A stretch of DNA of 64,000 bases from contig JBBQXJ010000005.1 in assembly GCA_038209745.1 (NCBI GenBank), positions 27,153 through 91,152 on the forward strand, given 5' to 3'. Positions 7,647 to 41,847 of the stretch are shown here, in pieces. The DNA comes from Verrucomicrobiota bacterium. GTDB lineage: Bacteria > Verrucomicrobiota > Verrucomicrobiia > Limisphaerales > CANJSG01. The position numbers and the translations under genes were made by a program. A model generated the notes under the pieces. That model was not told the DNA's origin. It made no database searches and worked only from the letters and a program-made list of their open reading frames with translations. How positions within the stretch are numbered: position 1 is the first letter of the stretch; each line of letters starts with the position of its first letter.

Positions 7647-7872
7647 CACGAACTCTTCATCGAACCCCTGCACGATCCGTTTCACACGGGCTTCCCCGGC
7701 AGGTCGAAGTGTGGCGGGAGAGTCCGCGAAATAACAAATCGTGCGCGAGAAAAAAGGTCGGGGAATCAACCTAATCTTCCATCCGCCCGTTCGGGCTCGC
7801 GTGGGTGGGCCCAGTTTCTGGACATTGCGGCCTGCATTTGGAGACTGATTTGGAGATGCGGATCTTCCTCGG

Positions 7873-10203: not shown

Positions 10204-10254
10204 CCGGACTCTTCCTCCTTCCCCGACGCCGGTCTTGCCCGTTGAATCCTCGCA

Positions 10255-11760
10255 ATGCCGGATATTGTCTATCTCCTCATCGGCGTCGTTATAGGCGCGG
10301 TTCTCGGTTGCCTCGCCGGCTACGTGCTGGCCCTGCGCAAAGGCGGCGCACCACCCGACCAGCGCATCGAGAATGAACTCCGCCAACAAGTCGCCCAGCG
10401 CGAGGCCGCTCTCGCCGAGCAGCGCCGCCAGGCCGCAGAAGCCTCCAATGCCCGCGCGGGCGCCGAGGCCAGCCAACGCGGTGCCGAAGCCGCCGCCGCC
10501 GAGAGCCGCACCCAGCTCCAGCGCAGCGAGACGGACCTCGCCGCCCTCCGCAACGAGCTGACCCACGTCGCCCAGAAGCGCGCCGCCGCCGAAGCGGAGC
10601 GCGACGCCGCCAACCAGCGGATCACGGCCCAGCAGGCTGAAATGGATCGCCGTTTCCTGGATCTCCAAAGGGCCCAGGACAAGGCCTTGGTCGATCTTCG
10701 CCTCAGCTTCCAGGCGCTCAGCACCGAGGCCTTGCAGAAGTCGCAGCCGGAGTTTCTCCGCCTCGCCAACGAGACGCTCGGCAAGTTCCAGGAACAGGCC
10801 AAGGGCGACCTCGCCCAGCGGCAGCAGGCCATCGCCACTCTGGTCGAGCCTCTCAAGCAGACGCTCACCACCTACCAGCAGCGCCTGCAACAAGCCGAGC
10901 AGGCCCAGTCCTCCACGCTGGGCGAAGTGAAGAAGCAGCTCGAACTCCTCGCCGTCCAAAGCCAGTCCCTCTCGTCGGAAACGCTCCAGCTCCGCCGCGT
11001 GCTCAGCTCGAACCAGGCGCGGGGACGTTGGGGCGAAGACACGTTGCGGCGCGTGGTCGAAGCCTCCGGCATGAGCGTCCACTGCGAGTTCGAGGAACAG
11101 GCGGTGGCCGGTGACGCCAAGCCCGACATGGTCGTCCGCCTGCCCGGCGATCGCTTCATCATCGTGGACGCCAAAGTGCCGGATCTCGACTTCCTCCAGG
11201 CCCTGGACGAGGCCGACTCCACCAAACGCGCCGCAGCTCTCGGCGCCCATGCGGCCAAGCTGAAGAGCACGATCAAAGCCCTCGCCGACCGCGACTATCC
11301 TTCCCAGTTCCCCGACGCTCTCGACCACGTCGTGCTTTTCGTCCCGGCCGAATCCCTTTTCAGCGCCGCGCTGGAAGGCGACCGCGACCTGCTCATCTGG
11401 GCCGCCCAAAAGCGCATCCTCCTCGCCACGCCCGCCTCGCTCATCGCGCTCCTGCGCTCGGTCGCCGTGAGCTGGCAGCAGCATGAACAGACCAAGAATG
11501 CCCGCGACATCGCCATCGCCGCCGGCGAACTCTTTCAACGCGTGGTGAAGTTCACCGAACATTTCGACGCCATCCGCGCCGGACTCGAACGGGCCAACAA
11601 GTCCTACAACGACGCCGTCGGCAGCTACGAACGCATGGTCCGCCCCAGCGGTGAACGCGTGCTCAAGCTCGGTGGAGGCCAAGTGGAGAAGCCCTTGGAA
11701 GAGATCGCCCCGATCCAGACCCCGCTTCGTCTACCGCCCGTTCCCGCGACGGAACCCTAG
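10255..11760 (+). CDS. rmuC: DNA recombination protein RmuC
   Basis: N-terminal TM, long coiled coil, RGRWGE, PDMVVRLP, IVDAK, FVPAE. Confidence 0.92.
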   Translation: MPDIVYLLIGVVIGAVLGCLAGYVLALRKGGAPPDQRIENELRQQVAQREAALAEQRRQAAEASNARAGAEASQRGAEAAAAESRTQLQRSETDLAALRNELTHVAQKRAAAEAERDAANQRITAQQAEMDRRFLDLQRAQDKALVDLRLSFQALSTEALQKSQPEFLRLANETLGKFQEQAKGDLAQRQQAIATLVEPLKQTLTTYQQRLQQAEQAQSSTLGEVKKQLELLAVQSQSLSSETLQLRRVLSSNQARGRWGEDTLRRVVEASGMSVHCEFEEQAVAGDAKPDMVVRLPGDRFIIVDAKVPDLDFLQALDEADSTKRAAALGAHAAKLKSTIKALADRDYPSQFPDALDHVVLFVPAESLFSAALEGDRDLLIWAAQKRILLATPASLIALLRSVAVSWQQHEQTKNARDIAIAAGELFQRVVKFTEHFDAIRAGLERANKSYNDAVGSYERMVRPSGERVLKLGGGQVEKPLEEIAPIQTPLRLPPVPATEP

Positions 11761-11790
11761 ATCGAGCTTCATCGACCAAGCCCGGCAACG

Positions 11791-11823
11791 AAAACGCCCG
11801 ACCGTTTGACGCGGTCGGGCGTT
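11791..11823. terminator. Hairpin terminator between convergent genes
   Basis: AACGCCCGACCG / CGGTCGGGCGTT stem with A-run on the left, giving a U-tract on the minus strand. Confidence 0.7.
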
Positions 11824-11850
11824 GCGGTTTCGAATCGTCGAGGGCGTCTC

Positions 11851-14391
11851 TCAGCGGAACATCTTGTTCGCTTTGTCGCCTCGGCTGAGGAGGTAGGAGG
11901 TCAGGTCGAGGATTTCGTCCTGCTTCAGCACGTTCAACAGGCCCTCGGGCATCGGAGAGGTCTTGGAGGGCGCGATCTTGACGATGTTCTGGCGCTTGAC
12001 GTTCGTGAAATTGCCGGGGTCGAACATGTTCTCGGCGATGTTCAGGTCGTCGCCGTTCAAGTTCGCGATGCGTCCGACGACTTCGTCCCCGTTCTTCAGG
12101 GTGATGACGACGTTCCCGTATTGGTCGCTGATCTCCTTGTTCGGAAGGACGATCGATTCCAGCAGGTCGCGGGGGCTGAAGCGCCCTCCGATGCCGGTAA
12201 GATCGGGCCCGACCGCTCCGCCCTCGGTGGAGAAACGATGGCAGGCGGAGCAAAGGGCGCCGAAGAGCTCGTGGCCCCGGTCGAAATTGCGGCCGCTCTT
12301 CAACCCCTTGTCGAGAGCGGGGGCGAGATCGCCGAGGGTCCATTCCTTGACCGTCTGGCGGCCCGCGAGCGCGGCTCCGGGCGGCTTGATCACCGGCTGA
12401 GCGTCGATGATCGGCTTGAGCTCCGCCATCTCGGCGGGGCTGAGGTTCGCGACAGCGTCCTTCTTCATGTCGCGCAGGAAGCCACGAAGGCTCGCTCCAC
12501 CGCGGAAGCTGGCCGCATCAAGAAACCAGGCGAAGTAGGCCTTGTGCAGTTCCGGGGTCCATCCGTGCTTCAACACCCGGAGGAACCGCGCGTAGTCGAG
12601 TTGCTCTTCCTGGACACGCGAAGACTTCAGCGCGGCCATGATCTTGGTCGCGGCGTCCGAGGCGTCGAGATAGACGAGCATCTGGGCCAGTTCGGCATTG
12701 AGATGACGGCTGCCGCTGGGGAAGTGCGGATCGAACTTGCCGACCAGGCGCGCGCGCCAGGCCAGATCGGGTTCGCCCAGCCGGGTGAAGGCGAGACTGA
12801 AGGCGCGGAGCAGATCAATCTGCTGGCGCTCGTTGAGCTTGCTCCAGTCGATCCGATCCAGCGTGGTCAGGATGCGGTCCGCGAGCTTCGGATCCGGCTT
12901 CGGATCGGTGGCCTTGCGATGGACGGAGTCGAGGCTGCTGACGCGGGCGAGGGCGATCATCGCCTCGATGGCGGTGTCGGGATCGGTTGCGGCGAGAGCC
13001 TTTTCGCTCCACTGCGCCGCCGGCTGCCATTCCAGCGCAACGCGGGCCGCGAAGCGCAGGTTGCGATCTGGGCTGCCGAGAAATTTCCAGGCATCGGCGA
13101 CGGCGGCCGGATCCTGATGACCGTGGAAGCTCTCCAGATGGCGCCGAGCCGCGAGGGCCGGGCGCATCATCTTGTTCTGCTTCACCAGGGAGGTGGACTC
13201 GGTGCCGGTGTAGGTCACGCGGTAGAGACCGGACTGGGTCCGGCGACCGCCGATGGTGAAGTAGAGGGCGTGGTCGGCCGGATTGACCACGATGTCGGTC
13301 AGGGGCAGAGGAGAACCGGTGATGAACTCCTCCTTCTCGGCGGTGTAACCGGCGCCGTCGGGCTTCAGGTGGATGGCGTAGAGTTTTCCGTAGCTCCAGT
13401 CGTTTATGAAGAAGGCTTCCTGATATTTCGCGGGGAAAGCGGCCCCGTAGCCGAAGCTGACGCCGGTCGGAGAACCGGGGCCGATGTCGATGACGGAGCC
13501 AAGGCTGTCCGGGTAGTAGTCGGGCCACTTGCCGGCGCCGCTGCGCCAACCAAACTCTCCTCCGCTGGCGACGAAGTTCACCCGCGTCGGCCGATACCAC
13601 GGCGTGTTCATGTCCCACTCCATGTCGGCGTCGAAGGTGAAGAGGTCGCCATCGCGGTTGTAGGCGGCGTCATATTCGTTGCGGAACCCGTTCGCCATCA
13701 GCTCCCATTGGCTGCCGTCCGGGCTCATCCGTGCGATCCAGCCGCCGGGGGCCAGGGTGCCCTTCATGAAGCCGTTGCCGTCCCAGAGGCGGGGCAGGAG
13801 ATGGTCTTCGCTCCAGCGCAGGGGCACGCGCGACGAATCGATCTTGGTCAGGGCGGTCTGGTCGCCGACGACGATGGTCAGCGTTTTGCCGTCGGGCGAA
13901 AGGACGATGGAGTGGGGGCCGTGTTCACCGCCGCCTTCGAGCTTGCGCAGCAGTTTTACCTCGTCGAACTGGTCGTTTCCCTTGGTGTCGCGCACCCGAT
14001 AGATTCCCCGTCCTTGGTAGGCGTCGTTGGCCACCATCACGTAGAGGCTGTCGAAGGCGTAAAGGAGCCCCTGCGCCTCGCCCACCTCGACGGCGAGCTT
14101 CTCGACCTTGGCCGCACCAGACGAGCCGATGGGCGCGGGCGTGATCCGGAAGAGCCCGCCGTATTGATCAGAAACGATCAGGCGACCCTTCGGATCGGGC
14201 GTCATGGCGACCCAGGAACCTTCCTGGTCCTTGGGCACATTGTGGATGAGCTCGACCTTGAACCCCTTGGCGACGGTCAACGAGCCGGGAGCGGTCGCGG
14301 AGGCGCCGTAATCGGCGGCATAGACGGAAAAGCCGAGCAAACCGGTGGCGGCGAGCAAACCGGTCCAAGATTTCAGATTGGCAGATGACAT
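11851..14391 (-). CDS. PVC-type heme-binding protein (glucose/sorbosone-dehydrogenase-like propeller, helical region, cytochrome c)
   Basis: Signal peptide, GFRNEY, DADMEWD, GPGSPTG, CSACH, GPDLTG, SPMPEGL. Confidence 0.85.
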   Translation of the reverse strand: MSSANLKSWTGLLAATGLLGFSVYAADYGASATAPGSLTVAKGFKVELIHNVPKDQEGSWVAMTPDPKGRLIVSDQYGGLFRITPAPIGSSGAAKVEKLAVEVGEAQGLLYAFDSLYVMVANDAYQGRGIYRVRDTKGNDQFDEVKLLRKLEGGGEHGPHSIVLSPDGKTLTIVVGDQTALTKIDSSRVPLRWSEDHLLPRLWDGNGFMKGTLAPGGWIARMSPDGSQWELMANGFRNEYDAAYNRDGDLFTFDADMEWDMNTPWYRPTRVNFVASGGEFGWRSGAGKWPDYYPDSLGSVIDIGPGSPTGVSFGYGAAFPAKYQEAFFINDWSYGKLYAIHLKPDGAGYTAEKEEFITGSPLPLTDIVVNPADHALYFTIGGRRTQSGLYRVTYTGTESTSLVKQNKMMRPALAARRHLESFHGHQDPAAVADAWKFLGSPDRNLRFAARVALEWQPAAQWSEKALAATDPDTAIEAMIALARVSSLDSVHRKATDPKPDPKLADRILTTLDRIDWSKLNERQQIDLLRAFSLAFTRLGEPDLAWRARLVGKFDPHFPSGSRHLNAELAQMLVYLDASDAATKIMAALKSSRVQEEQLDYARFLRVLKHGWTPELHKAYFAWFLDAASFRGGASLRGFLRDMKKDAVANLSPAEMAELKPIIDAQPVIKPPGAALAGRQTVKEWTLGDLAPALDKGLKSGRNFDRGHELFGALCSACHRFSTEGGAVGPDLTGIGGRFSPRDLLESIVLPNKEISDQYGNVVITLKNGDEVVGRIANLNGDDLNIAENMFDPGNFTNVKRQNIVKIAPSKTSPMPEGLLNVLKQDEILDLTSYLLSRGDKANKMFR

Positions 14392-15766: not shown

Positions 15767-15889
15767 GTCTACGGAGCGGGTTCAGGTCGATTCGGCCAAA
15801 AGCGGTCGTCTCCGATCAGAAGACGGACGCCGGAGATAGCCGCCCGTCTCTCGCCTCCGTCTCCGCATGAACAACCTCTTGAGCCTCCA

Positions 15890-16282
15890 CATTTAGAGAG
15901 CTTGGCCAAGCGGGCGATCTGGAAGCCGGGGAGCTTGCGGCGGCGCAGGGCCAGGACTCGGAGGACCCGCAGACGATGGAGGCCGTCCGGGGAGCGTTTT
16001 GGCCTAGAAGAACGGGTCTCAAGACCGCAGTGCCATCGGCGCGGAAACGGGCCAGCCACTTCTGGGCCGAGCCGACCGCGATCCCGAACCCGAACCCGGC
16101 GGCGACCTCGGCGACGGGCTGGCGGAGTTCCACGATGCGCTTTACCAGTTCGGCTCGACCCAGCGGGGTGAGCTTGGCATTGCTATGGGCGTTCATGCGG
16201 GGGTGGTTCCTAGATCGGTGTTGTTTTCACAATCCCATCGGTCCAGCTCCGCCTCGCATGAACACCCTCCCGGAACATCACA
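15890..16282 (-). mobile_element. IS481-family remnant (frameshifted, truncated transposase; one end intact)
   Basis: MNAHSNAKLTPLGRAELV..KWLARFRADG continues after a frameshift as GLETRSSRP..LALRRRK. Minus-strand end 5'-TGTGATGTTCC at 16282 is flanked by GCTAGC (NCTAGN target). No DDE domain; left coordinate approximate. Confidence 0.85.
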
Positions 16283-16415: not shown

Positions 16416-16492
<77 letters not shown>

Positions 16493-16697: not shown

Positions 16698-17486
16698 ATG
16701 AACCCAGGACCAGTGACGTTATCTCTCCGGAGCCTGACCAAACGCTTCGGCTCACAGATCGCGGTCGACGCGCTCACCTTCGACGTTCCCGCGGGCCAGA
16801 TCGTCGGGTTCCTCGGACCGAACGGCGCCGGGAAGTCGACGACATTGAAAATGCTGACCGGGATGCTCCAACCGACCGCCGGTTCCGCCACGGTCTGCGG
16901 CTTCGACCTCGCGACCCAGGCCATCGAAGTGAAGCGCCACATCGGCTTCGTGCCGGACTCGGGCGCGGTCTTCGAATCGCTGTCCGGACTCGAGTATCTG
17001 GAGATGGTCGCCTCCCTCTATGCGATTCCGCCACGCGCCGCGTTGGAGCGGATCCGCCAGTTCATCGCCTTCTTCGACCTCAGCTTCGAGACCCTGACCG
17101 ACAAGCTGCTGGGCGCATATTCCAAGGGCATGCGGCGCAAGGTCGTGATCACCGCCGCCCTCCTCCACAATCCGCAGGTCGTCTTCTTCGATGAACCTCT
17201 GGACGGGCTGGACGCCAACGCGGCCGTCGGATTCAAGGCGCTGATCCAGACTCTGGCCAGAGAGGGCAAGACCATCGTCTACAGCTCCCACGTCCTCGAC
17301 GTGGTGGAGCGGGTTTGCGACCGCGTGATCATCATCGACAAAGGGCGCCTCTTGCTCGACGGCAAACCGGACCAACTGGTGGCCGAGCATCGGTCAGGCA
17401 CCTTGGAACGGCTCTTCACGGATCTGACCGGCGGGGCGGAACTGGAACGGCGCGCGGAAGACTTCGGCCGCACTTTCCGGCAATGA
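16698..17486 (+). CDS. ABC transporter ATP-binding protein
   Basis: GPNGAGKST, YSKGM, FFDEP, SSH. Confidence 0.95.
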   Translation: MNPGPVTLSLRSLTKRFGSQIAVDALTFDVPAGQIVGFLGPNGAGKSTTLKMLTGMLQPTAGSATVCGFDLATQAIEVKRHIGFVPDSGAVFESLSGLEYLEMVASLYAIPPRAALERIRQFIAFFDLSFETLTDKLLGAYSKGMRRKVVITAALLHNPQVVFFDEPLDGLDANAAVGFKALIQTLAREGKTIVYSSHVLDVVERVCDRVIIIDKGRLLLDGKPDQLVAEHRSGTLERLFTDLTGGAELERRAEDFGRTFRQ

Positions 17487-19135
17487 GCGACGTCGTCACC
17501 CAGCCTCCGCCCATCCCGCCGGACCCGCCAGCGCCACCGGTCCGGAAAGCGTTGCGCCGTCTCTATCTGACCTTGTTTCTGCGCGGGCGATCGTCGCGGG
17601 GACTGCAGAAGGGCAAGGCCCCACAATCGATCGGATCGAAGCTGGCGCTAAGCCTGTTCTTCTACGCCTTGATGGGATTGATGGCGCTCTTCTTCCTGCG
17701 CCACACGGTCCATGTGATGTCGGTCTATCTCCACGCGATGACCCAGGTCTTCCTCGGGTTGTTCCTCTCGGCTTCGGCGGGGGAGATCCTGTTCAACAAG
17801 GAGGAGGGCGACATTCTCCTGCACCGTCCGATCAAGCCCGGCGTGCTGCTCTGGGCCAAGATCGGCGTCATGGTGGAGGTGTCCCTCTGGCTGGCCGGCG
17901 CCTTCAATCTGGCGGGCCTGGTCGGCGGCGTGTTCGTCAAAGACGGAGGCTGGATGTTCCCCGTGGTCCACGTGGTGTCCACCGCGTTGAGCGCATTGTT
18001 CTGCGCCGGCTCGGTGGTGTTGATCTACCAGTTGTGCCTTCGCTGGTTCGGCCGCGAAAAGCTGGATGGTCTGATGACCACGGCCCAAGTGCTGGTGGCG
18101 ATCGTGGCGGTGACCGCCGGGCAAATCCTGCCCCGCATGATGGGCCGCATGGGCGATCAAGTGGCCGCTGCCGCGACTTCCTGGTGGATCGCGATTCTCC
18201 CGCCGGCCTGGTTCGCGGCGATGGACGACGCCGTGGCCGGCAGCGGGGCCACCGCTTCCTGGATGTTGGGCGTTCTCGGCGTGGTCATCACCGCCACGGT
18301 GCTGTGGCTGGCCTTTGGCAAACTGGCGGCCACCTACGAATCCGGACTGCAATCGCTCTCCGAAGCCCAGCCCGCCAGGCCGAGGCTCCCATCGGGACGG
18401 GGCGGTCTGGAGCGGTTGCTGGGCTTTGCCCCGTTGCGCTGGTGGCTGCGCGACCCGGTGGAGCGCGCTTCCTTTCTCCTGTGCGCGGCCTACCTGCTGC
18501 GAGACCGGGATGTGAAGCTCCGCGTCTACCCCGGCATCGCCCCGATGCTGGTTCTGCCCGTCGTTTTTCTCATGGGCGGAACCCGCGGCGGCCCAGGGTC
18601 GGGCAACGAGTTCGGCCTGGTCATGGCGGGAGCCTACCTGGGAATCGTGCCGATCCTCGGGGTCTCGATGCTGCAATACTCGCAACAATGGCAGGCCGCG
18701 GACCTGTTCCGCGCCACGCCCTTGGCCGGCCCAGGCCCGCTGTGCCACGGCGCTCGGCGCGCCGTCCTGTTCTTCCTGGCCTTGCCGGTTGTGGCCATCG
18801 CCATGGTGCTGATGACTCTCATCTCCGGATCGCCGGCTCCTCTGCTGATGCTCATCCCAGGTCTGCTCCTGATGCCGGTCTGCTCGATGATCCCCTGCCT
18901 TTCAGGCGGTGGCGTTCCGCTCTCGCTCCCGACGGAAGAGGCCAAGTCCGCCGGCCGTGGCGTGATGATATTCGGCGCCATGATCGGTGCGGCCGTCGTC
19001 TCCGGCATGGCGGCGTTCGCCAAGTCATTCGGTTGGTTCTGGCCCTTCGTCGGCGTGGAGCTGCTGCTCGTGCTGGCCGTCTGCCGTGTCCTCGGCGCGA
19101 AGATCCGGTCCGCCCGCTGGAAGCCGATGGAGTAG
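17483..19135 (+). CDS. Putative ABC exporter permease
   Basis: Many TM helices; ATGA overlap with the ATPase gene; start MSDVVTQ. Confidence 0.8.
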   Translation: MSDVVTQPPPIPPDPPAPPVRKALRRLYLTLFLRGRSSRGLQKGKAPQSIGSKLALSLFFYALMGLMALFFLRHTVHVMSVYLHAMTQVFLGLFLSASAGEILFNKEEGDILLHRPIKPGVLLWAKIGVMVEVSLWLAGAFNLAGLVGGVFVKDGGWMFPVVHVVSTALSALFCAGSVVLIYQLCLRWFGREKLDGLMTTAQVLVAIVAVTAGQILPRMMGRMGDQVAAAATSWWIAILPPAWFAAMDDAVAGSGATASWMLGVLGVVITATVLWLAFGKLAATYESGLQSLSEAQPARPRLPSGRGGLERLLGFAPLRWWLRDPVERASFLLCAAYLLRDRDVKLRVYPGIAPMLVLPVVFLMGGTRGGPGSGNEFGLVMAGAYLGIVPILGVSMLQYSQQWQAADLFRATPLAGPGPLCHGARRAVLFFLALPVVAIAMVLMTLISGSPAPLLMLIPGLLLMPVCSMIPCLSGGGVPLSLPTEEAKSAGRGVMIFGAMIGAAVVSGMAAFAKSFGWFWPFVGVELLLVLAVCRVLGAKIRSARWKPME

Positions 19136-19160
19136 GCCAAGCCGACCCCCGTTTCAGAAA

Positions 19161-19236
19161 ATAGCCGCCGACGTGAGGAAGCAACGACGGGAGGCATGAT
19201 AAGCCGTTAAATCCGCCTCGTTACCTCGGCGGCTAC
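19161..19236. repeat. REP-like inverted doublet
   Basis: ATAGCCGCCGACGTGAGGAAGC ... GCCTCGTTACCTCGGCGGCTAC (GTAG foot on the minus strand) between convergent genes. Confidence 0.65.
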
Positions 19237-19306
19237 AAAGCGGCGGCCGCTTCAACAGCGTTCCGATTATGGCCCCGCCTTCTTGGCCGCTGCTTGGATA
19301 TCCTCG

Positions 19307-21571
19307 TCACTGGTGGACCCGGTTGCCGGCGGGATCGATGATCGTCGCGGTGATGAGGACGAAGAGGTGTTTGGTCGTTCGAGTCGTCACGTCAGCGGCT
19401 TCGCCATCCGCCTTCACCCGACCGTGGACGGTGTTCGTATCCGTGGATGTCAAGCCGCCCACCAGCAACGATTGACCGTCCAAGATCCTCGCGGTCGAAG
19501 TAAAATAGCACGTGCGCATTCTGGGCAACGGCAACGTCCCCTTGATGGGTTCAGCCCCTCCGATGGAGCGCTCGGGAACAAACCCATTCGGATCGTCATA
19601 CCCGAGAAACTCGGAGTCCGTGGCGATGACCGTCAGTGCGAGGGTGAATCCATCGGCTTCCACGTAGGGAATCACGTCTAAAGTCGGACCAAATGGAATC
19701 GCACTGGTGTTGTAGGCGATGTCCGATGTTCCTAATGGCGAATTGGTCGATGAGACGCCGGTGACGACGGTCCTCAGTTCCAGCGTGGAGATCTGGGCTT
19801 GCCGTCCGGACAAGGTGGTCACCCTCGGCGCGGTGATGATCGAGGACCCTTTGGTTCCTTCCATGGATTTCAGGAGCTCGCGGGCCTGTTCTGGTGTGAG
19901 GATCGCTGCTTTTTCAGAATTTGCAGAGTCCACCCTGATTGTCGGGTTTGCCTCCTGGAATACCTTCGCCTTATTGGTTCCGGAGAGTTCCGGTTCGGCA
20001 ACCGGATGTGGAGTGAGTGCCGGCCAGTCCTTCGCCAACACCTTCATTCCCTCGTCGGAGACCTCGATCCTCTTTGCTTCGATCGTGATCTGGGGAGGAG
20101 CCGCATTGAGCACTTCAATCGCGGATTGAATGACCTCCAAATCGCTTCCCCAAGCCCTCACCATCAGTAGACCGGTTCGGTCGTTGAAAAACACCGCTTT
20201 GGGCGGAGTCAGGTCCACCCCCACTTGGGTGAAATAGCTCCTTACTAGGCTGTGGATATGGGCAGGCAGGGTCGTTGATGCTTCGAGCTTTTCCCCAATG
20301 TCTAGTTGGGACTCCGAAGTTTGTTTCTCTTCGCCAGTGCCAAGTTGGGGCTCAACTACGCTTTTCAAAGCCTGAACAAACGTATTCGGATCCACCTTGA
20401 AAACCCGTGTGACCAGGTTGGTGTCCTGCGGCTTTACCTCCTGCTTCAACGCGATGCTCGGCTCATCCCGATGCAACGCCTTGCCCACCTGGTTCACCGG
20501 AGAATCTCCGCCCGTTCGACAGGCGCTGAGGGCCACCATCGCCGCCCCGGCTCCAACGAGCGCAGCCGCACTCCATCTCCATCCCGGTTTCGGTAAACTT
20601 GGTGACTCTTCGGAGGATTCCAACAGCCGCTCGACCCGCAGGCCCAAGTCGGAGTGATCGCCATCGCCCGCTGCTGCCAGCATGGGCCACGGGGCGACCG
20701 GGCCCGGCTTTGCGGCCAAGGCCACCAAGGCTTCGGCCAAGCTGCCGTTGAGGGGACCGGCCAACCGACTCGCTTCGTCTGCCGCCAGTTCACAGGCGGT
20801 ATGCAGTCGCCGCCGAACCAGCCACACCGCCGGATGCCACCAGAGCAACGGCGCCAACACTTCGCCCAGACAGCGCCAGAGCGCGTCCAAGCCCGCGATG
20901 TGGGCGAACTCATGCGCCAGCACCGCGCGTTGATGATCCGGAGTGAACGCATCCGAGAAGTCCGACGGCAGACACACGACCGGCCGGAGCAGGCCAAAGG
21001 TCATGGGCGACGCCAACGCCCCTTGGCGCAGCTCAGGCGTCCGGTTCATCCCCAGTTGTTCCCGCACCTCCTTGGCGCGCTGGAGCAACTCCGTGTCGTT
21101 CACCGCTTGGAAGCGGCGGCGCACCAACGACAAAAGACCCAACGCCAGTCCACACCGCGCCAGCAGCAATCCGGTGCCCGCGATCCAACCCATCGCCAAC
21201 CACCCCGCGATCCGATCCTTGGACGCCGTGGCTGCGACCAATGGTTTCGCCACCAGAGAAACCGAGGAGGTGGACAGCACCATCGCCGCCCTTGGTGTCG
21301 TGGGCTGTTGCGAAGACGCCGCCGCGATGGCCGCCGCTTCGGTCGGTCTTTCAACCCGCTTCCACATCGGCGCCAAGGCTCCTCGGGCTCCGGTCCACTC
21401 CGCGAGCGCCACTCCTACCAACAACGTGGCTGTCGAAAGCCAGACCGCGCGCTGGATCTGGGCCCGCTCCAGTCGCCGCGCGAAGAGTTCGGCCAGGGCG
21501 ACGACCACCACTCCGGCGACGCCGAGGCCGGCGAGGGACAGGAACAACGGATTCCAGTCGGTCGGGTTCAT
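19307..21571 (-). CDS. M56 (BlaR1-like) metallopeptidase fused to a secretin (GspD/PilQ-like) domain
   Basis: N-terminal TMs, LAHEFAH, LLWWHP, CELAADE. C-terminal half has FFNDRTGLLMVR, PQITIEAK, APRVTTLSGRQA, GPTLDVIP, DGQSLLVGGL, FVLITATII. Confidence 0.85.
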   Translation of the reverse strand: MNPTDWNPLFLSLAGLGVAGVVVVALAELFARRLERAQIQRAVWLSTATLLVGVALAEWTGARGALAPMWKRVERPTEAAAIAAASSQQPTTPRAAMVLSTSSVSLVAKPLVAATASKDRIAGWLAMGWIAGTGLLLARCGLALGLLSLVRRRFQAVNDTELLQRAKEVREQLGMNRTPELRQGALASPMTFGLLRPVVCLPSDFSDAFTPDHQRAVLAHEFAHIAGLDALWRCLGEVLAPLLWWHPAVWLVRRRLHTACELAADEASRLAGPLNGSLAEALVALAAKPGPVAPWPMLAAAGDGDHSDLGLRVERLLESSEESPSLPKPGWRWSAAALVGAGAAMVALSACRTGGDSPVNQVGKALHRDEPSIALKQEVKPQDTNLVTRVFKVDPNTFVQALKSVVEPQLGTGEEKQTSESQLDIGEKLEASTTLPAHIHSLVRSYFTQVGVDLTPPKAVFFNDRTGLLMVRAWGSDLEVIQSAIEVLNAAPPQITIEAKRIEVSDEGMKVLAKDWPALTPHPVAEPELSGTNKAKVFQEANPTIRVDSANSEKAAILTPEQARELLKSMEGTKGSSIITAPRVTTLSGRQAQISTLELRTVVTGVSSTNSPLGTSDIAYNTSAIPFGPTLDVIPYVEADGFTLALTVIATDSEFLGYDDPNGFVPERSIGGAEPIKGTLPLPRMRTCYFTSTARILDGQSLLVGGLTSTDTNTVHGRVKADGEAADVTTRTTKHLFVLITATIIDPAGNRVHQ

Positions 21572-21951
21572 AGGTCTTTCTTTTTGTCGGCGATGAGTTT
21601 CTCCAAACGGGCCAGCTCCTTCGCGCTGATCTTCCGGTCCTTCAACAGATGGCTGACCAGGTCGGAGACGCTGCCCTGGAAGATCCTTTCCAGCAGATGG
21701 CTGGTCATCCCTTGGTTCACCTGCTCGGGCTGGACCACCGCGCGGTAGATGAAAGTGCGGCCCTCGTTGCGGTGCCCGACGAGGCCCTTCTCCTCCATCC
21801 GGCGGAGCAGTGTGGCCAGCGTGGTGTAGGCGTGGGCCTCCGTGCCCAACGCCTCATGCACGTCGGCCACCGAGGCCTCGGTGCGGGACCAGAGGAACTG
21901 GAGGATGCGATGCTGGAGATCGCCCAATCGATGGAGTCGTGGAGTCGGCAT
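21568..21951 (-). CDS. BlaI/MecI/CopY family repressor
   Basis: ILQFLW, YTTLATLLRRMEEKG, GRTFIY, FQGS; 4-bp overlap with the M56 gene. Confidence 0.93.
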   Translation of the reverse strand: MPTPRLHRLGDLQHRILQFLWSRTEASVADVHEALGTEAHAYTTLATLLRRMEEKGLVGHRNEGRTFIYRAVVQPEQVNQGMTSHLLERIFQGSVSDLVSHLLKDRKISAKELARLEKLIADKKKDL

Positions 21952-21967
21952 GGTGAACGACAGTAGT

Positions 21968-21987
21968 AATACTACCTGTGTAGTATT
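21968..21987. promoter_or_regulatory. BlaI-type operator palindrome AATACTAC-CTGT-GTAGTATT
   Basis: Perfect 8-bp arms 16 bp upstream of the blaI-like start. Confidence 0.8.
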
Positions 21988-22043
21988 GTCGGCAAGAGAA
22001 AAGAGCCGCCCGCTTCGATGGCTCGAAACGGGCGCTTCAAGTC

Positions 22044-22070
22044 AGGGCCGCGCGGCAACGCGGCCCTACC
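22044..22070 (-). repeat. GTAG-type REP-like hairpin
   Basis: Minus strand GGTAGGGCCGCGTTGCCGCGCGGCCCT. Confidence 0.55.
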
Positions 22071-22079
22071 GGGATGGGG

Positions 22080-23231
22080 TCAGGCTTTGACCTGTTTGAC
22101 CTTGGTCCACTTCTTGGTCTTGGCGGAGGAGAGCACGGCGTCGACCACGTAGTCGGTGGCGAGACCGTCCTTGAAGTCGGGTTTGGGCGCTTCGCCCTTC
22201 TCCAGGGCGCTGAGGAATTCGACGACCTGGTGGATGAAGCTGTGTTCGTAGCCGAGCTGGAGACCGGGCACCCACCAGTTGCCGGTGTAGGGATGGTCGC
22301 CATCGGAGACGTGGACGCTCTTCCAGCCCCGTTCGCGGCCTTCGTCGGCGTGGTCGAAGATCTGGAGGCGGTGCAGGTCGTGCAGGTCCCACTTCAGGGA
22401 CATGTGCTCGCCGTTGACCTCGAACGTGTAGAGCGCCTTGTGGCCTCGGGCGTAGCGGGTGGACTCGAAGAGGCCGAGAGACCCGTTGTTGAAGTGGCAG
22501 AGGAAGGAGCAGGCGTCGTCGATGGTGACCTTCTGGACCTTGCCGGTGAGGGTGTGCTTGCGCTCCTTGATGAATGTCTCGGTCATGGCCGTGACGTCCT
22601 TGATGCCGCCGTTGAGCCAGAGCGCGGTGTCGATGCAGTGGGCGAGCAGATCGCCGGTGACCCCTGAGCCGGCGGCCTTGGCATCGAGACGCCAGAGGCC
22701 GGCGCCGCCCTGCGGGAGATCGGGGCTGATGGTCCAGTCCTGGAGGAAATTGGCGCGGTAGTGGAAGACCTTGCCTAGCTTGCCTTCGTCGATGAGCTGC
22801 TTGGCCAGGGTGACGGCCGGGCAACGGCGGTAGTTATACCAGACCATGTTCGGCACTTTGGCCTTCTGCACGGCCTTGACCATGGCCTCGGCTTCCTTGG
22901 CATTCAGCGCGAGGGGCTTTTCGCAGAGGATCATCTTGCCCGCTTTCGCCGCAGCCAAGGCGATCTCGGCGTGGAGGTTGTTCGGGACGGCGATGTCGAC
23001 GATGTCGATGTCGTCGCGGGCGATGAGTTTCTTCCAGTCGGTCTCGATGGACTGGTAGCCCCATTTGTCAGCGAATTCCTGGGCCTTGGTGGCGTCGCGG
23101 GCGCAGACGGCTTGAAGGACGAGTTCGTAGCCGGAGGGGAAAAAGTGACCGACCTGGCTGAAGGCGTTGGAGTGGGCGCGGCCCATGAAGCCGTAGCCGA
23201 TGAGACCGATGCGGAGTTGTTTCTTTGCCAT
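22080..23231 (-). CDS. Gfo/Idh/MocA family oxidoreductase
   Basis: IGYGFMG, CEKPLA, GDLLAH. Confidence 0.92.
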
Positions 23232-23796: not shown

Positions 23797-24852
<1,056 letters not shown>

Positions 24853-25092
24853 AGATTGTTCCTGGGGACGGCCTTCGACGGTATCGGCGGAGTCGGGTCA
24901 ATCAATCCGAAAGTGTCGGACATTCGGGGGGGCGGTTCTTTGGCCTCTCCACGGGTCAGCATTTTCCCTTTGCTTTTAAGGAGGTGGGTCCCCGGTTTAA
25001 CGGCTTCCGACGGCCTCCTTTGCCGGGTTGTTCAAATCGTTGAACGACTTTCGCTCCGGTCCGTCGTGATTGGCTTTGCCAAACTCAGCCCG

Positions 25093-26175
25093 ATGACTCC
25101 ATTTCAGGAAATGACGAATGGCCGGATCTCATCTTTGTCCTTCTGGTGTCATCGCGGAGTGCTTCGTTTGGCCAGCTGGTTGCTGTTGGTCGCTGCGCTG
25201 CTCGCGGCCCGCGAAGTCAAGGCAGGTGGGCAGGGCCCGGTCTTGACGATGACAGAGGAGAACGACCTCTTTCTGAACACGGATCGCCACTACACGCAGG
25301 GGCTGAAGTTCACCTACATGTTCGGTGACGATGAGGTCCCTGACTTCGCCATCGGCTGGGCCACGAACCTTCCCTCCCTTGGCTACGAGGTGCAGCATGC
25401 CAAAGCCGGGTTCACCATCGGCCAGTCGATCTTCACCCCGGCGGACACCGCGACCACGGCGCTGATTCCGACCGATCGACCCTACGCTGGGTGGTTGTAT
25501 CTCGGGCTGATTCTGCAACGGAACGGAACGAACCAGTTTCTGGGGCAGATCTTCGGCCAGCATCGGTCGTTGGAGAACCTGGAGATCTCGCTCGGCGTGG
25601 TCGGCCCTTGGGCGCTGGGCAAGGAGGCCCAAACCTGGGTCCATCAGCTCCGGGGCTTCGATCTTCCCCAAGGCTGGAGCCACCAGTTGCGCAACGAGCC
25701 CGCGGTCCAGTTCCGCTACACCCGCATGTGGGACCATCGCTCACCGGAGGTTTGGGAGCCTTTTTCCATCGATCTCATCCCTCACTGGGGCGCCAGCCTT
25801 GGGACGGTCTATGTCTTCGGCAACGTCGGCGTCACGGTGCGGATGGGTCTCAACGTCCCCCTTGATTTCGGCACCTCGACCATCGACGCGCCCACGGTGG
25901 AGTCGGGCGAAGGGATCCGTCCAAAATGGGGGGTCTACGCGTTTTCCGGGGTCGACGGACGGGCGGTCGGCTGGAACACATTTCTCGACGGCAACGTCTT
26001 CCGCGACACCGACCATGTGGAAAAGCGGAACCTCGTCGGTGATTTCAAGGTAGGCGGTGTCCTGGTCCTTAAAAAGGTCGAACTTGGCTACACCTACATC
26101 CTCCGTTCCGCAGAATACGTGTCCCAGCAACAACGGGACGCATTTGGCTCCATCAGCCTTAAATGGAAGTTCTGA
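25093..26175 (+). CDS. LpxR/DUF2219-family outer-membrane beta-barrel (lipid A deacylase-like)
   Basis: EEND..DRHYTQG, GQSIFTP, DRPYAGWLY, QTWVH, GWSHQLRNE, terminal F; start uncertain. Confidence 0.85.
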   Translation: MTPFQEMTNGRISSLSFWCHRGVLRLASWLLLVAALLAAREVKAGGQGPVLTMTEENDLFLNTDRHYTQGLKFTYMFGDDEVPDFAIGWATNLPSLGYEVQHAKAGFTIGQSIFTPADTATTALIPTDRPYAGWLYLGLILQRNGTNQFLGQIFGQHRSLENLEISLGVVGPWALGKEAQTWVHQLRGFDLPQGWSHQLRNEPAVQFRYTRMWDHRSPEVWEPFSIDLIPHWGASLGTVYVFGNVGVTVRMGLNVPLDFGTSTIDAPTVESGEGIRPKWGVYAFSGVDGRAVGWNTFLDGNVFRDTDHVEKRNLVGDFKVGGVLVLKKVELGYTYILRSAEYVSQQQRDAFGSISLKWKF

Positions 26176-27606: not shown

Positions 27607-30471
27607 GTGCGAGCGCTTCTCCTGAATCTCCCGAGGTTTGTTTTTGGCTCCCTCTTCTGCCTGGCGGCCCTCTCAGCGCAGGCGCAGGACAGCTATCGGT
27701 GGGAGTTTCCGGTCAGCGGCGCATTCAACGACAAGAACAAGTGGGCTTCCTTCCCTAACGACGGCTTTCCCACGGCCGGGGATTTAGCCATCATCAATTT
27801 TGGGAATGGCTACACCGTGACCATCAACGGAGCGGCGTCAGGCATCGTCGAATTGGGGGGCGATGTTACCTTTCAGCTCGATGGCAACTACAACACAGGC
27901 GAGTTTCGGAAAGGTGAAGGCCGTCTGGTGTTGCGCAGCACCGGCACTCTGGCAGGCGGGCCCTTTTACCTGAGCGGAAACGGACTCGCCGACGTAAACA
28001 ACGTGGAGGTGGATGGCGCGGGATTGACCATGAATGGCCTGCTAACGGATAGCTCCTATAGGATCATTGGGCGCAACGGGGCGCAGATCAACTCCTCGGG
28101 GTTGACAGGTCAATACGGCACCAGTCCGCTGCTAGAATCGGGCGCGGTGTGGCATCACACCGGCACGAATTATGGGCCTTTGTGCATTGTCAACTCCGGC
28201 TCACTTCTGGCGGCAGATGTGGTCGGCTTTACCCGGGCCCAAATGGATGGCGGCCGCCTCCAGGCCGGTCAGCTCTTCCTTGGTGGTCTTGAGGCGACCA
28301 ACGGGGCTACGGTTAACGCCACCACCGCCAACCCCTCCGGATTCAGGCCCTGGGTTCTTGGGGGCGGCGGCACGAGGCTGACGGTCTCGGGCGTTCTCCA
28401 AGGCTCGACAGAGGATGTGAGGGCGCTGGCCGGAGCCGTGATTTCAGCCGGATCCCTTGCCAATTCCGGCTTTTACGTCGTCGACGGCAGCGGTTCGCAA
28501 CTGGCGGTCGCCGGCTCCATCGATGCAGCGAGGATTACGATGAGCAACCAGGGCCAGGGCAGCGCCGCCACCATGACCCGGAGTTCGTTGACCATCCGGA
28601 ATGGCGGCTCGGTCTTCAACGTCGGCGACCGGATTGAAGATTCTACCGTGATTGTCCAAAACGGAGCCCGGGTCAACGCCGGCCCCGGCGCGGGTAGCGG
28701 CTTCGCAGTAGATGGCGTGGGTTCGGTCGTGCTGCTCAGTGGGAAATTGGCCAAGTCACCGTCCGGAAGGCCCGCCTCGGTAGATGTGAGCGGCGGTGGA
28801 CGGCTGGACTGTGCCACGGCGAATGCCAGCGGCTCGGTGTTCGGAGCCGGTTCCTTCTGGCGGGTGGGCGGCGACGGTCTGGTTGTGGGCGACGAGGAAG
28901 AGATTTTCATGAGCCTGGGCGATGGCGGGCGGGTGGAAGTCCACGGCAATGCGATGGGGGTGGGCTCCAGTGTGGGCGGGAAAGGGAATGTGTATGTCGA
29001 TGGCGGCCCGTCGGTGTCGCCATCGGTGCTGGATGTCCGAGACGTTTTAGAGACCGGCGTCGGGGTTGGCGGAAAGGGATTTCTTAAAGTTTACAATCGT
29101 GGGCGGATGCTCGCCAGCAAGCTCACGGTGGGTGCCTATGCGGGATCCGACGGCACTCTGGAGGTCCTCGGTTCGGGCACGAGCTTGGAAGTGGGGACCA
29201 CGCTGGAGATCGGGAGGGGTGGCTCTGGCCAGATGACCGTCAGCGGCTTGGTGATCACGCCGGAAGTCCTCGTCGGATCAAACAGTGGAACCAACCTTCT
29301 CCGCCTGACGGGTTCTGGTTCCACCATGACGGTCGCCGATAGGGTCAGGTTGGGAAAATCGGGAAATGGCCAATTGACCATCCAACAGGGAGCGCAGCTC
29401 GTTCTGACGAGCGCTTGGGTAGAACCGAACCCCAGCGAGGTGGGTCTGTGCGAGGTTAGTTCGGGCTACGGGACCGGCACCGTTACGGTGGACGGATCAG
29501 GCTCGGCCTTGCGCGGGGTCAACGCCTTTCTGGCGGTTGGACTCACCGGCAAAGGGAATCTGAAAGTGACCGCTGGCGGAGCAGTTGATTTTTCCGCCAT
29601 CAGTATCTTTGGTGGGCAGAACCAAAGCAGCACCGGTTCCATCTCGGGTGAAGGTTCGGTGGTGCAAGCCCGCGATTCTGTAGTGATTGGAAATGCGTTT
29701 CCCGGCCCCGGATCGGACGAAGTCACCGTGTCCGCTGGCGGCCTTTTGAATTCCAAGGCCGATTTTCACGTGGGCCCGACGGGGACTCTGCGCTTGAGCG
29801 GGGGGTCGTGCGTGGTGGGGCAAACCGCCGAAGCGCCGATTCCCGGCACTGCGTTGGTCGCCAACTTCGGAAAGTTTTATCTGGGCGGCAAACTGATCGG
29901 CTCGGTGCTGGTCCGACCCGGCGGCCAGTTTCTGCCGGGCTCTTCGCCCGGCCATGCGGCGGTGGAGGGCAATGTGACGCTGGCCGCAGGCACCACCCTT
30001 GAAATGGAGTTGGGCGGCCTGGGTGCCGGTACCGGCTTCGATCAAATCGACGCCACCGGCACGGTGACGCTGGCCGGGCGGCTGGATTTTGTTTTTCGCG
30101 ACGGCTTTGCCCCGACCAACGGTCAGTCTTTCGAGCTGGTCCGGGGTGGGTCGGTCACGGGGAACTTTTCGGAAGTGAACGTGGTTGGCTTGGCGCCTGG
30201 CTTCACCTACACGCTGGTCAACAGCGGAGGAACCTCTTTGGTCCTCACCGCCACCAGCGCGGGCGTTCCGACGACCGCGCCGCTCTTGAGCATCTCCCGG
30301 TCGACCCGCACGAACGTGGTGGTCTCATGGCCGGATTACGTCACCGGCTGGACGCTTCAGCAGAGCACCAGTCTGCAATCGGGATCGTGGAAGCCGGTCG
30401 CCGCTCCGGGAAATCTCCTGAACGAGCCGGCTCCTGTCGGGTCTTCTTTTTTCCAACTGGTGAAGCCGTGA
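27607..30471 (+). CDS. Large secreted Gly-rich beta-helical repeat protein (T5SS/PEP-CTERM-associated-repeat-like) with a C-terminal beta domain
   Basis: Signal peptide; repeats of VG..G.G.L.V..GG and V.G.GS; PGSSPG..LEMELGG..FDQI; C-terminal ..VSWP..W.LQ..FFQL. Confidence 0.75.
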   Translation: MRALLLNLPRFVFGSLFCLAALSAQAQDSYRWEFPVSGAFNDKNKWASFPNDGFPTAGDLAIINFGNGYTVTINGAASGIVELGGDVTFQLDGNYNTGEFRKGEGRLVLRSTGTLAGGPFYLSGNGLADVNNVEVDGAGLTMNGLLTDSSYRIIGRNGAQINSSGLTGQYGTSPLLESGAVWHHTGTNYGPLCIVNSGSLLAADVVGFTRAQMDGGRLQAGQLFLGGLEATNGATVNATTANPSGFRPWVLGGGGTRLTVSGVLQGSTEDVRALAGAVISAGSLANSGFYVVDGSGSQLAVAGSIDAARITMSNQGQGSAATMTRSSLTIRNGGSVFNVGDRIEDSTVIVQNGARVNAGPGAGSGFAVDGVGSVVLLSGKLAKSPSGRPASVDVSGGGRLDCATANASGSVFGAGSFWRVGGDGLVVGDEEEIFMSLGDGGRVEVHGNAMGVGSSVGGKGNVYVDGGPSVSPSVLDVRDVLETGVGVGGKGFLKVYNRGRMLASKLTVGAYAGSDGTLEVLGSGTSLEVGTTLEIGRGGSGQMTVSGLVITPEVLVGSNSGTNLLRLTGSGSTMTVADRVRLGKSGNGQLTIQQGAQLVLTSAWVEPNPSEVGLCEVSSGYGTGTVTVDGSGSALRGVNAFLAVGLTGKGNLKVTAGGAVDFSAISIFGGQNQSSTGSISGEGSVVQARDSVVIGNAFPGPGSDEVTVSAGGLLNSKADFHVGPTGTLRLSGGSCVVGQTAEAPIPGTALVANFGKFYLGGKLIGSVLVRPGGQFLPGSSPGHAAVEGNVTLAAGTTLEMELGGLGAGTGFDQIDATGTVTLAGRLDFVFRDGFAPTNGQSFELVRGGSVTGNFSEVNVVGLAPGFTYTLVNSGGTSLVLTATSAGVPTTAPLLSISRSTRTNVVVSWPDYVTGWTLQQSTSLQSGSWKPVAAPGNLLNEPAPVGSSFFQLVKP

Positions 30472-41184: not shown

Positions 41185-41847
41185 ATGCCTCGGCGGACCC
41201 TAGCCTTCACCCTGATTGAACTCCTCGTGGTGATCGCCATCATCGCGATCCTCGCCGGCATGCTCCTTCCGACGTTGGGCAAAGCCAAAGGAAGGGCCCA
41301 CGCCATCACCTGTCTGAACAACCTCAAGCAGTGGGGTCTGGCGACCCATCTCTACGCCACCGACAACAACGACTTCCTCCCTCCGGACGGCACGCCGAAT
41401 CCGGCTCCGACCTATACCGGAAGCGGCTGGTATGTGGAGCTGCCGAAACAGCTCGGGATCAAGCCCTACTTCTCCAACGATTGGCTCCAAATGGAGGGTT
41501 CTAGGCCGACGGGCAATCTCTGGGTCTGTCCGTCGAATCTTCGGGGAGCCAAGAACAACCGGCTCTTCCACTACTGCCTGAACCAATATGTGAACGAAAC
41601 CGGGGCCAACAACCGGCCCCGAAAATTGGGAACCGTACCCTCTCCTGCGGCCACCGTCTGGCTCTACGACAGCAAGAACCTCCCGGCAGTGGGCACCCCG
41701 AACTACGTCCATACCAACCTCCATTCCGCTGGTGCCCAGTTCACCTTCCTCGACGGACATGCCCGCCTTTTCAAGGCGCCAGACTATTGGGATTTCACGG
41801 CCAAGAAGGGCCGGACCAACAACCTGGAGTTGATCTGGGCACCGTGA
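41185..41847 (+). CDS. Prepilin-type N-terminal cleavage/methylation protein with H-X9-DG motif (DUF1559-like)
   Basis: [43 protein letters not shown]. Confidence 0.92.

Follow-up and report, generated by a model that had tools for sequence, protein, structure and literature searches.

We analyzed a 64,000-nucleotide stretch of DNA from a Verrucomicrobiota bacterium (assembly GCA_038209745.1, contig JBBQXJ010000005.1, positions 27,153 to 91,152), here called the window, whose coordinates are used throughout. On its minus strand lie two overlapping genes that encode a BlaI-like repressor and a 754-residue protein in which an M56 protease is joined to a secretin-like C-terminal half. We propose that this pair is a self-contained, self-repressed proteolytic switch of the BlaI/BlaR type, with a secretin-derived extracytoplasmic module instead of a penicillin-binding one. 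In our estimate this is rather more probable than improbable. The proposal is built on what the DNA displays directly: the gene pair, the catalytic residues of the protease, the operator, the paralogy of the C-terminal half to a pilus secretin, and the loss of a motif from that half.

The gene pair and its upstream boundary are laid out as follows.

21568-21951, minus strand: blaI-like repressor gene, 127 amino acids (open reading frame list; Pfam Penicillinase_R, 7.7e-32)

19307-21571, minus strand: M56 protease/secretin-like fusion gene, 754 amino acids plus stop (open reading frame list, Pfam, NCBIfam, homologues)

22007-22034, minus strand: terminator-like hairpin, a 12-pair stem followed by a T run, which ends the upstream oxidoreductase gene

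The two genes overlap, as a first-pass annotation made from the sequence alone had reported; the overlap is 4 nucleotides (ATGA). The BlaI-like protein scored 110.5 bits against Penicillinase_R (cut-off, 22.6). It has the layout of a winged helix followed by a C-terminal dimerization part, and its nearest solved relatives were 2G9W (2e-10) and MecI (1SD6). Across the genome (4.58 Mb, 92% complete), blaI was the single Penicillinase_R gene and the fusion was the single Peptidase_M56 match. The hairpin separates blaI from the gene at 22080-23231, a Gfo/Idh/MocA oxidoreductase by Pfam, and the genes downstream of the fusion converge on the pair. Hence, blaI and the fusion gene make up a two-gene operon.

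Perhaps the joining of protease and secretin was a misjoin, as the first-pass annotation had allowed? Contigs from three runs of three studies bridged the fusion junction with no indel or joint: X2 record 7 and X4 record 15 span 19950-20800, and X3 record 11 spans 19950-21100. Another assembly supplied a 754-amino-acid protein (P0001) that is 96% identical to the fusion. We conclude that the fusion is not an assembly artefact.

The protease half and the helix that ends it comprise the following features.

20771-21517, minus strand: Peptidase_M56 region, residues 19-267 (Pfam, 93.7 bits; cut-off, 31)

20900-20914, minus strand: zinc motif HEFAH, residues 220-224

20777-20791, minus strand: zinc motif ELAAD, residues 261-265

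20519-20575, minus strand: last transmembrane helix, residues 333-350, N-in/C-out, ending L-S-A-C (hydropathy; same position in other fusions)

The protease is intact, as had been claimed for it. Residues H220, E221, H224, E261 and D265 were invariant across 71 aligned fusions. Residues 184-265 aligned without gaps to residues 165-246 of Staphylococcus aureus BlaR1 (8EXS), and the five invariant positions fell on BlaR1 H201, E202, H205, E242 and D246, whose roles we take from the cited passages of PMC9834060. Hydropathy gave four hydrophobic segments: TM1 at 9-27, TM2 at 39-57, TM3 at about 125-150 and the last helix at 333-351. Residues 58-124, between TM2 and TM3, would form a periplasmic loop, and the basic residues lie on the predicted cytoplasmic sides of the helices. 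A hydrophobic segment also followed HExxH by about 110 residues in nearly all of the first 60 relatives. These features predict a four-helix inner-membrane protein with a cytoplasmic protease loop. With this topology, the C-terminal half would lie in the periplasm, like that of BlaR1. The segment between the halves had been read as a linker that resembles a lipoprotein signal. Hydropathy, the relatives and the BlaR1 alignment mark it not as a free-standing signal but as the fourth and last transmembrane helix of BlaR1-type proteins.

What follows that helix is not the sensor of BlaR1. No Pfam match to a penicillin-binding, transpeptidase-like domain was found in the 754-residue protein, and both NCBIfam BlaR1 models stayed far below threshold (blaR1_generic, 56.5 bits versus 400; sensor_BlaR1, 15.5 versus 1200). 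The C-terminal half is divided as follows.

20081-20425, minus strand: single N3-like (Secretin_N type) domain, residues 383-497 (colinear blocks with the genome's own PilQ-like secretin)

19904-20023, minus strand: short polar "beta-lip" region, residues 517-556

19310-19903, minus strand: secretin core, residues 557-754 (Pfam; homology to the own PilQ-like secretin)

19364-19459, minus strand: residues 705-736, where a VPxLGDxPxxGxLF block is expected and the polar stretch TSTDTNTVHGRVKADGEAADVTTRTT stands instead

The profile comparison suggested in the first-pass annotation bore out the secretin homology. The Pfam Secretin profile (PF00263) matched residues 573-714 with 40.9 bits (cut-off, 27.5), over profile positions 5-129 of 169 only, and Secretin_N reached 15 bits, under its cut-off of 28.2. 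The five other secretin genes in the genome scored 108-165 bits on the Secretin profile. NCBIfam Amuc_1098_fam (NF042912) gave a partial match to residues 380-534 (65.1 bits versus a cut-off of 750). A family profile of the fusion matched the solved structures of BfpB (2.8e-22), GspD (1.2e-18), PilQ (1.3e-14) and BlaR1 (3.3e-12), and the closest ESM Atlas clusters were secretins (score, 0.90).

One secretin of the same genome could be aligned with the fusion over most of the C-terminal half. This PilQ-like protein is a 970-amino-acid TPR-secretin encoded directly downstream of pilM and two unannotated open reading frames (G000:C20, locus L101, 5845-8757). The alignment runs in three colinear blocks, at fusion residues 383-405, 438-516 (65% identity) and 557-754 (42%), and a low-complexity loop is inserted in the N3-like domain at about 406-437. 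By this comparison, the C-terminal half is an old paralog of the cell's own Amuc_1098/PilQ-type pilus secretin. A foreign origin was considered and set aside: there was no sign of one, the base composition being like that of the own PilQ gene (GC, 0.57 for the C-terminal half and 0.595 for PilQ).

The paralogs differ in particular places. The lip region has 40 residues, 1 aromatic and 22% charged residues in the fusion, compared with 93 residues, 7 aromatics and 4% charged in the own PilQ, and one core loop has 16 residues compared with 33. The VPxLGDxPxxGxLF block is present at 10 of 10 key positions in the paralog and at 3 of 10 in the fusion, where the paralog's KDKIPVLGDLPLVGRLFRSE gives way to the polar stretch; the outer-barrel strands on both sides of the missing loop are retained. 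No part of the own PilQ matched all 19 solved secretins found better than this block, which sits between the last two barrel strands. In PilQ-type secretins, the beta-lip is the stretch between N3 and core (PMC10653833, in the passage cited). The amphipathic helical loop (AHL) is described as the most conserved secretin sequence, as the sole membrane-embedded part together with the beta-lip, and as needed for insertion (cited passages of PMC6155069, PMC6532946, PMC8134430, PMC9239104 and PMC7545093). Because the missing block lies between the last two barrel strands and answers to this "most conserved sequence," we take it to be the AHL.

Might the protein nevertheless span the envelope? The first-pass annotation had offered this as one of its two readings. 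On such a view, the uncut protein would be anchored in the inner membrane, its secretin half would form a multimeric pore in the outer membrane, and the state of the channel would be coupled to BlaI cleavage. The true secretin homology across N3 and core speaks for it, as does the finding that lips of about 36 residues suffice in phage secretins (PMC8563730, in the passage cited). However, this member has lost the loop, its lip is polar and poor in aromatic residues, and between the last helix and the barrel it has a tether of only about 30 residues plus one N-domain, which by rough, uncomputed geometry would need full stretch to cross the periplasm. Together, these features argue that the module is periplasmic and not a pore. 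We conclude that an outer-membrane pore of the classical kind is unlikely, and a periplasmic sensor more likely, for this short member. Hence, the part of the claim that put secretin homology in place of the penicillin-binding sensor stands, and the part that made it a pore loses ground.

The relatives of the fusion bear on the same alternative. Of the best 120 matches, 90 carried both PF05569 and PF00263; they were 614-1310 amino acids long and came mostly from Verrucomicrobiota metagenome-assembled genomes. When a match to either half counted, an exhaustive search (E <= 1e-30) returned 848 cluster representatives. The architecture is thus common. Matches, mostly to the stand-alone secretin, occurred in 39 of 41 genomes of the window's order, compared with 3 of 120 sampled other genomes of the phylum. 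Within the genus, two genomes (G000 and G002) had the gene pair and five did not show it; four of these five were also searched with the region's DNA.

We built a FastTree phylogeny of the N3-plus-core region (219 rows, local supports only) and labeled rows as fused or stand-alone by an HExxH pattern within the first 420 residues and by length, leaving seven short rows unlabeled. One clade held 24 of the 25 stand-alone secretins (support, 95), and the label switched only twice on the tree. Hence, this is an old fusion, not one formed anew from the resident secretin. The state of the VPxLGDxPxxGxLF loop was far less stable. Of 187 fusions, 58 had it intact, 24 had a degenerate form and 105 had lost it; of the 25 stand-alone secretins, 24 had it intact and 1 had lost it. 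On a tree built without the loop columns, the loop state changed 26 times, and at least 11 of these changes were forced by well-supported branches. Median lip length was 40 residues in fusions and 82 in stand-alone secretins. Because the loop was lost repeatedly in fusions and not in stand-alone secretins, membrane insertion would be dispensable once the secretin part is fused. The fused part thus seems, by these comparisons, free of the need for membrane-insertion elements.

A trans-envelope pore draws its best support from other members of the family. Loops were kept in the 58 fusions just counted, three long relatives (L011, L013 and L018) matched the full Secretin profile (positions 1-169 of 169, 81-105 bits), and many long members have extra periplasmic domains (SecDF_P1_head, ExbD, SLBB and others) that could bridge the periplasm. 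Recurrent loop loss confined to fusions argues the other way, and for the protein studied here we regard an envelope-spanning pore as improbable. The flanks of six relatives' loci (L009, L011, L013, L017, L018 and L025) had no neighbor in common; five of the six loci showed M56 and secretin parts, and blaI was called in three.

We found no published description of an M56/BlaR1 protease with a secretin sensor in the literature, in agreement with the first-pass annotation, which knew of none. One paper that names M56, BlaR1 and "secretin" together was examined and rejected: in the passage concerned, "secretin" denotes the STN domain of TonB-dependent transporters. The suspicion that the architecture might already be catalogued was justified, since M56-secretin proteins have JGI and NCBI database names. 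What sets this window apart is the short loop-less form, a lipobox at the BlaR1 shedding position and a single-operator regulon.

The control region of the operon contains the following elements.

21971-21984, minus strand: operator dyad 1, ACTAC-ACAG-GTAGT, core of an 18-bp palindrome at 21969-21986

21957-21970, minus strand: operator dyad 2, ATTAC-TACT-GTCGT, which abuts dyad 1 and ends 5 nucleotides before the blaI ATG

21990-21995, minus strand: -35-like hexamer TTGCCG (comparison with 11 related promoters)

The perfect palindrome ATACTAC-ACAG-GTAGTAT that had been noticed upstream of blaI is real. Its core is the first of two 14-bp sites that make up a 28-bp double dyad (21957-21984); the second site is imperfect. 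The -10-like hexamers TAGTAT and TATTAC sit within the two dyads. At related loci, TTGAC usually lies 5-8 nucleotides upstream of the first dyad (11 related promoters), and a second dyad of the form A(T/C)TA(C/T)-N4-GT(C/A)GT was present in most of 12 aligned promoters. The -35 and -10 assignments come from this between-locus comparison.

The strict core ACTAC-N4-GTAGT, which the first-pass annotation had put forward for a genome scan, occurred once in the genome, at this locus. It also occurred upstream of blaI in 11 other Verrucomicrobiota/Planctomycetota loci. A weight matrix built from those 11 loci alone, with the window's site left out, scored that site at 36.9 bits; no other site in the genome exceeded 16.6 bits, and the best reversed-matrix control reached 17.8 bits. 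No further operator was found in the whole genome: strict and relaxed dyads were no commoner than reversed controls, and the weight-matrix scan yielded nothing above control. The strict dyad was found once in each of four of the five other fusion-bearing genomes, always beside the blaI ahead of the fusion; the fifth, an 82%-complete genome, yielded none. In genomes G020, G035, G025, G013 and G011, the core occurred 0 or 1 times, compared with 3-20 times per strand for the reversed control, so that it is rarer than control. As far as can be judged from the DNA, the two-gene operon appears to regulate only itself. Since no other operator was detectable, the operon appears to act mainly on the amounts of its own two products, BlaI and the M56-secretin protein.

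If the operon is its own only detectable target, here and in four of five other fusion-bearing genomes, then the product itself becomes an obvious candidate for the output. The trimmed, tethered secretin subunit could be an inducible effector, and not the sensor, that co-assembles with PilQ or caps it, tuning pilus function, or it could titrate a secretin binder such as a pilotin or a phage protein. Such a decoy would be expected to keep N3 and the barrel core and to lose the membrane parts, which is the state of this module. The gene pair is also patchy in the genus and lies in a variable stretch, close to a tRNA-Met gene and to a fragment of an IS481-type transposase, which fits as well. The fusion had no match in PADLOC, however. 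Two further points, that the protease site is invariant and that its pairing with blaI is constant, speak for sensing as the core function. We consider a decoy role very improbable.

The end of the last helix raised a further possibility. The cysteine codon does lie at 20519-20521, as annotated, and encodes C351. K328 and R332 precede the helix, L-S-A-C351 ends it exactly at its periplasmic end, and a Gly/Ser/Pro-rich stretch follows. C351 thus completes a lipobox of the form [LVI][ASTVI][GAS]C on an N-in/C-out hydrophobic segment with positive charge ahead. This lipobox is not at the precursor N terminus; it is at residue 351, with three helices and the protease domain ahead of it. We know of no lipoprotein that is released from behind a four-helix precursor. 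The second reading of the first-pass annotation was that the protein is cut here to release a lipidated secretin. In such a scheme the last helix would double as an internal lipoprotein signal: Lgt would lipidate C351, LspA would cut between A350 and C351, and a lipid-anchored, loop-less secretin-like protein would be shed, leaving a sensor-less M56 core. Lol could then carry the shed part to the outer membrane. The cut might serve maturation or turnover or be part of the signal, and it would be compatible with the uncut form acting as sensor. Both enzymes are encoded in the genome (LGT, 239 bits; Peptidase_A8, 126.7 bits).

Conservation of the cysteine, on which the first-pass annotation had staked this part of its reading, was low in the family at large: 7 of 71 aligned fusions have Cys in the C351 column. 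Hence, lipoprotein release is not the general mechanism of the family. The near clade does keep it, as LSAC in P0001-P0005 and the fragment P0121 and as ASGC in P0006 and P0007 (36-40% identity), so that every close relative has the residue. A lipobox ended the last helix in 13 of 198 fusions and ended TM2, a control helix that is also N-in/C-out, in 1 of 198; Cys-containing tails numbered 33 at each. Within these 13, a separate, well-supported clade (P0133, P0153 and P0222; 47-50% identical to one another) has the classical lipobox motif L[STA]GC[LV]Q[SN]R, which is shared by P0126, a protein not in the tree. Of the 12 lipobox-bearing fusions in the tree, none had an intact loop (11 lost, 1 degenerate), compared with 57 intact among the 173 others. 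The lipobox clades represent only two or three independent events, however, so this association is not statistically meaningful, and a helix rich in L, A, S and G readily yields lipobox-like strings once a Cys is present.

There is a precedent for shedding at this place in the protein. The signal peptidase I SpsB cuts S. aureus BlaR1 between G331 and Q332, in the linker past the last helix, so that the sensor is shed, and G331K blocks the cut (cited passages of PMC9834060). From H201 to G331 of BlaR1 is 130 residues, and so is the distance from H220 to A350 of the fusion; the match is purely numerical, as the 266-350 stretch of the fusion is not part of the BlaR1 alignment. The best solved match of the C-terminal half, BfpB, is itself a lipoprotein secretin. 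No free or lipoprotein copy of the trimmed domain was found among 380 shorter matches, of which 26 N termini were inspected. All 26 began within the N3 domain without a signal peptide, so that these look like fragments. Constitutive cutting would, moreover, leave sensor and protease uncoupled. A crude list of lipoprotein signals over the whole genome held 241 candidates, with LSAC once and LAGC commonest; it is noisy, and many entries are probably spurious open reading frames. On balance, we consider lipidation and cutting at L-S-A|C351 doubtful but a possibility to be taken seriously. The near clade, the second lipobox clade and the BlaR1 precedent keep it in view for this protein; as a rule for the family it fails.

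Two observations on the same helix stand apart from this question. Fusions without a lipobox mostly end the last helix small-Trp-small, often A-W-A and then x-P (alignment columns of residues 349-353), and the A-W-A end could be either an interfacial Trp or a signal-peptidase-I-type AxA site as in BlaR1. P0121 is a 339-amino-acid fragment of a close relative, 62% identical to the N-terminal half, in which a gap of about 13 residues around the zinc motif has removed the first His of HExxH (...DFVEFAHIAG...), yet the LSAC end is kept. Either this is a variant whose protease is dead, or the assembly is in error.

We return to the self-repressed switch that we favor. BlaI dimers would sit on both dyads, overlapping the likely -10 region, and shut the operon off. 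A change of state in the secretin-derived module, here placed in the periplasm, would then be passed through the helices to the M56 site, as in BlaR1, and the M56 domain would cut BlaI and lift repression. The result would be more BlaI and more M56-secretin. What might the module respond to? Because it keeps N3 and the barrel core, the ring-forming parts of solved secretins, subunit contact would be the likeliest input. Such contact of the secretin type could be self-oligomerization or docking onto the pilus secretin or its machinery. The junction past the last helix may double as a processing site.

Several points weigh against this proposal. A sigma-70 consensus scan of 19100-22300 returned no promoter-like site, and RNA evidence was looked for over the stretch and none was listed. 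A regulon of one operon gives no account of a physiological output, and weak single-dyad sites would escape operator scans of a genome that is 92% complete. The trees were made with FastTree only. About a third of the fusions (58 of 187) retain the loop motif, and the family may have begun as true trans-envelope proteins. We infer the missing block to be the AHL from cited passages that give no residue numbers, and, since phage secretins function with short lips, a lip of 40 residues is by itself compatible with membrane insertion. That a lip or pore is absent was read from the sequence only. Finally, identity of the N3 block was 57% with the own PilQ and 44-61% with the PilQs of other genomes. 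Being no closer to its own PilQ than to the others, it gives no sign of co-evolution with the resident secretin.

The surroundings of the operon may be a small variable islet. The stretch from the tRNA-Met gene (16416-16492, plus strand) to the oxidoreductase gene holds an ABC ATPase gene, a 606-amino-acid membrane protein gene, blaR and blaI, and it is not syntenic in congeners. G001 and G003 have instead, beside the oxidoreductase, an open reading frame of about 316 amino acids with a signal-peptide-like N terminus and no homolog in the window's genome. The tRNA-Met gene adjoins a 126-amino-acid open reading frame (15816-16196, minus strand) with an IS481-type transposase leucine-zipper domain. 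The ABC-transporter ATPase gene (16698-17486, plus strand) overlaps the called start of the 606-amino-acid polytopic membrane protein (17315-19135, plus strand), which had no Pfam match, and the two genes run convergently toward the fusion gene's 3' end.

Genes of PilB/MshE and pilin-like type occur farther away. A PilB/MshE-type ATPase gene (T2SSE plus MshEN; 34010-35728, minus strand) is followed by a gene for an MshEN/TPR protein (35733-36602, minus strand), and a pilin-like protein with an N-methylation motif and DUF1559 is encoded at 41185-41847 on the plus strand. The genome has 15 T2SSE-family matches; the PilB/MshE-type genes lie about 12 kb from the blaI operon. At 24070-26175, the longest open reading frame of that place has an LpxR (lipid A deacylase) domain only at residues 373-701. 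Its long N-terminal part overlaps an opposite-strand xylose-isomerase-like TIM-barrel gene (23797-24852), and its true start is probably much further downstream. Three large open reading frames (1303, 860 and 954 amino acids) in 7771-14388 and 27607-30471 had no Pfam match at E <= 1e-5.

A penicillin-binding sensor is missing from more than 90% of BlaR-like proteases, whose signals are unknown (PMC13492132, in the passages cited). A sensor that can be traced to the cell's own pilus secretin narrows the possible signals to what secretin subunits touch. The family is also a natural experiment that sets the parts of secretins used for subunit contacts against those used for membrane insertion. 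With two genes, one operator and no other detectable target, the system should be an easy model and possibly a portable reporter of envelope state. The lipobox at the place of BlaR1 shedding offers a testable link between signal-peptidase processing and M56 signaling. If lipidation and cutting do occur there, this would be the first lipoprotein made from the C-terminal half of a polytopic membrane protease; an acyl anchor would replace the lost membrane-insertion loop, and sensor shedding at the junction would be an old, adaptable feature of the M56 family.

The nearest known counterparts are BlaR1-BlaI and MecR1-MecI of S. aureus and Bacillus licheniformis (8EXP-8EXT). They too have a repressor gene followed by a gene for a four-helix HExxH...ExxxD protease, a palindromic operator over the promoter, autoregulation and an extracytoplasmic domain past the last helix, and BlaR1 shares a signal-peptidase-type site at equal spacing from the zinc site. 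The gene overlap is a feature of the locus described here. Unlike BlaR1 and MecR1, the fusion has no penicillin-binding sensor, its sensor being secretin-derived, and no target gene comparable to blaZ or mecA is divergent from, or downstream of, the operon. In its motif, the junction suits signal peptidase II, and not signal peptidase I as in BlaR1.

Other M56 proteins with a BlaI-like repressor and a non-transpeptidase sensor are CenIR of Clostridioides difficile and the M56-TonB_C proteins of Bacteroides. According to the cited parts of the CenIR paper (PMC13492132), a transpeptidase domain is found in fewer than 10% of about 15,000 M56 proteins, which fall into 254 architectures; its figure legend names architectures with at least 100 entries, and secretin is not one of those named. 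In Bacteroides, M56 domains whose role is not known are present in TonB1 and TonB10 (bioRxiv 10.1101/2023.07.07.548152, in the passage cited). Unlike in these systems, the sensor described here is a copy of part of an envelope machine.

That machine is represented by the Amuc_1098/PilQ-type secretins of Verrucomicrobiota. The fusion is colinear with them over N3 and core and has the same C-terminal end as the own copy (...IIDPAGNRVH). It differs in having no signal peptide and no TPR N-terminal region, as well as in the shorter lip and core loop and the missing VPxLGDxPxxGxLF block described above, and the stand-alone copies make up a clade of their own. Among solved secretins, the C-terminal half was closest to BfpB of the bundle-forming pilus (9U5S; 1.1e-4 with the single sequence, in addition to the family-profile match given above). 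In BfpB the lipoprotein signal is of the ordinary N-terminal kind, an LG linker domain and an N0 domain are present, and a working channel is formed, whereas the candidate signal in the fusion is internal, behind the protease. If C351 is lipidated, the two would be alike in a further respect: each would be a secretin-type protein held at the membrane by an N-terminal acyl-Cys, an arrangement in which BfpB needs no pilotin (PMC12531336, in the passage cited).

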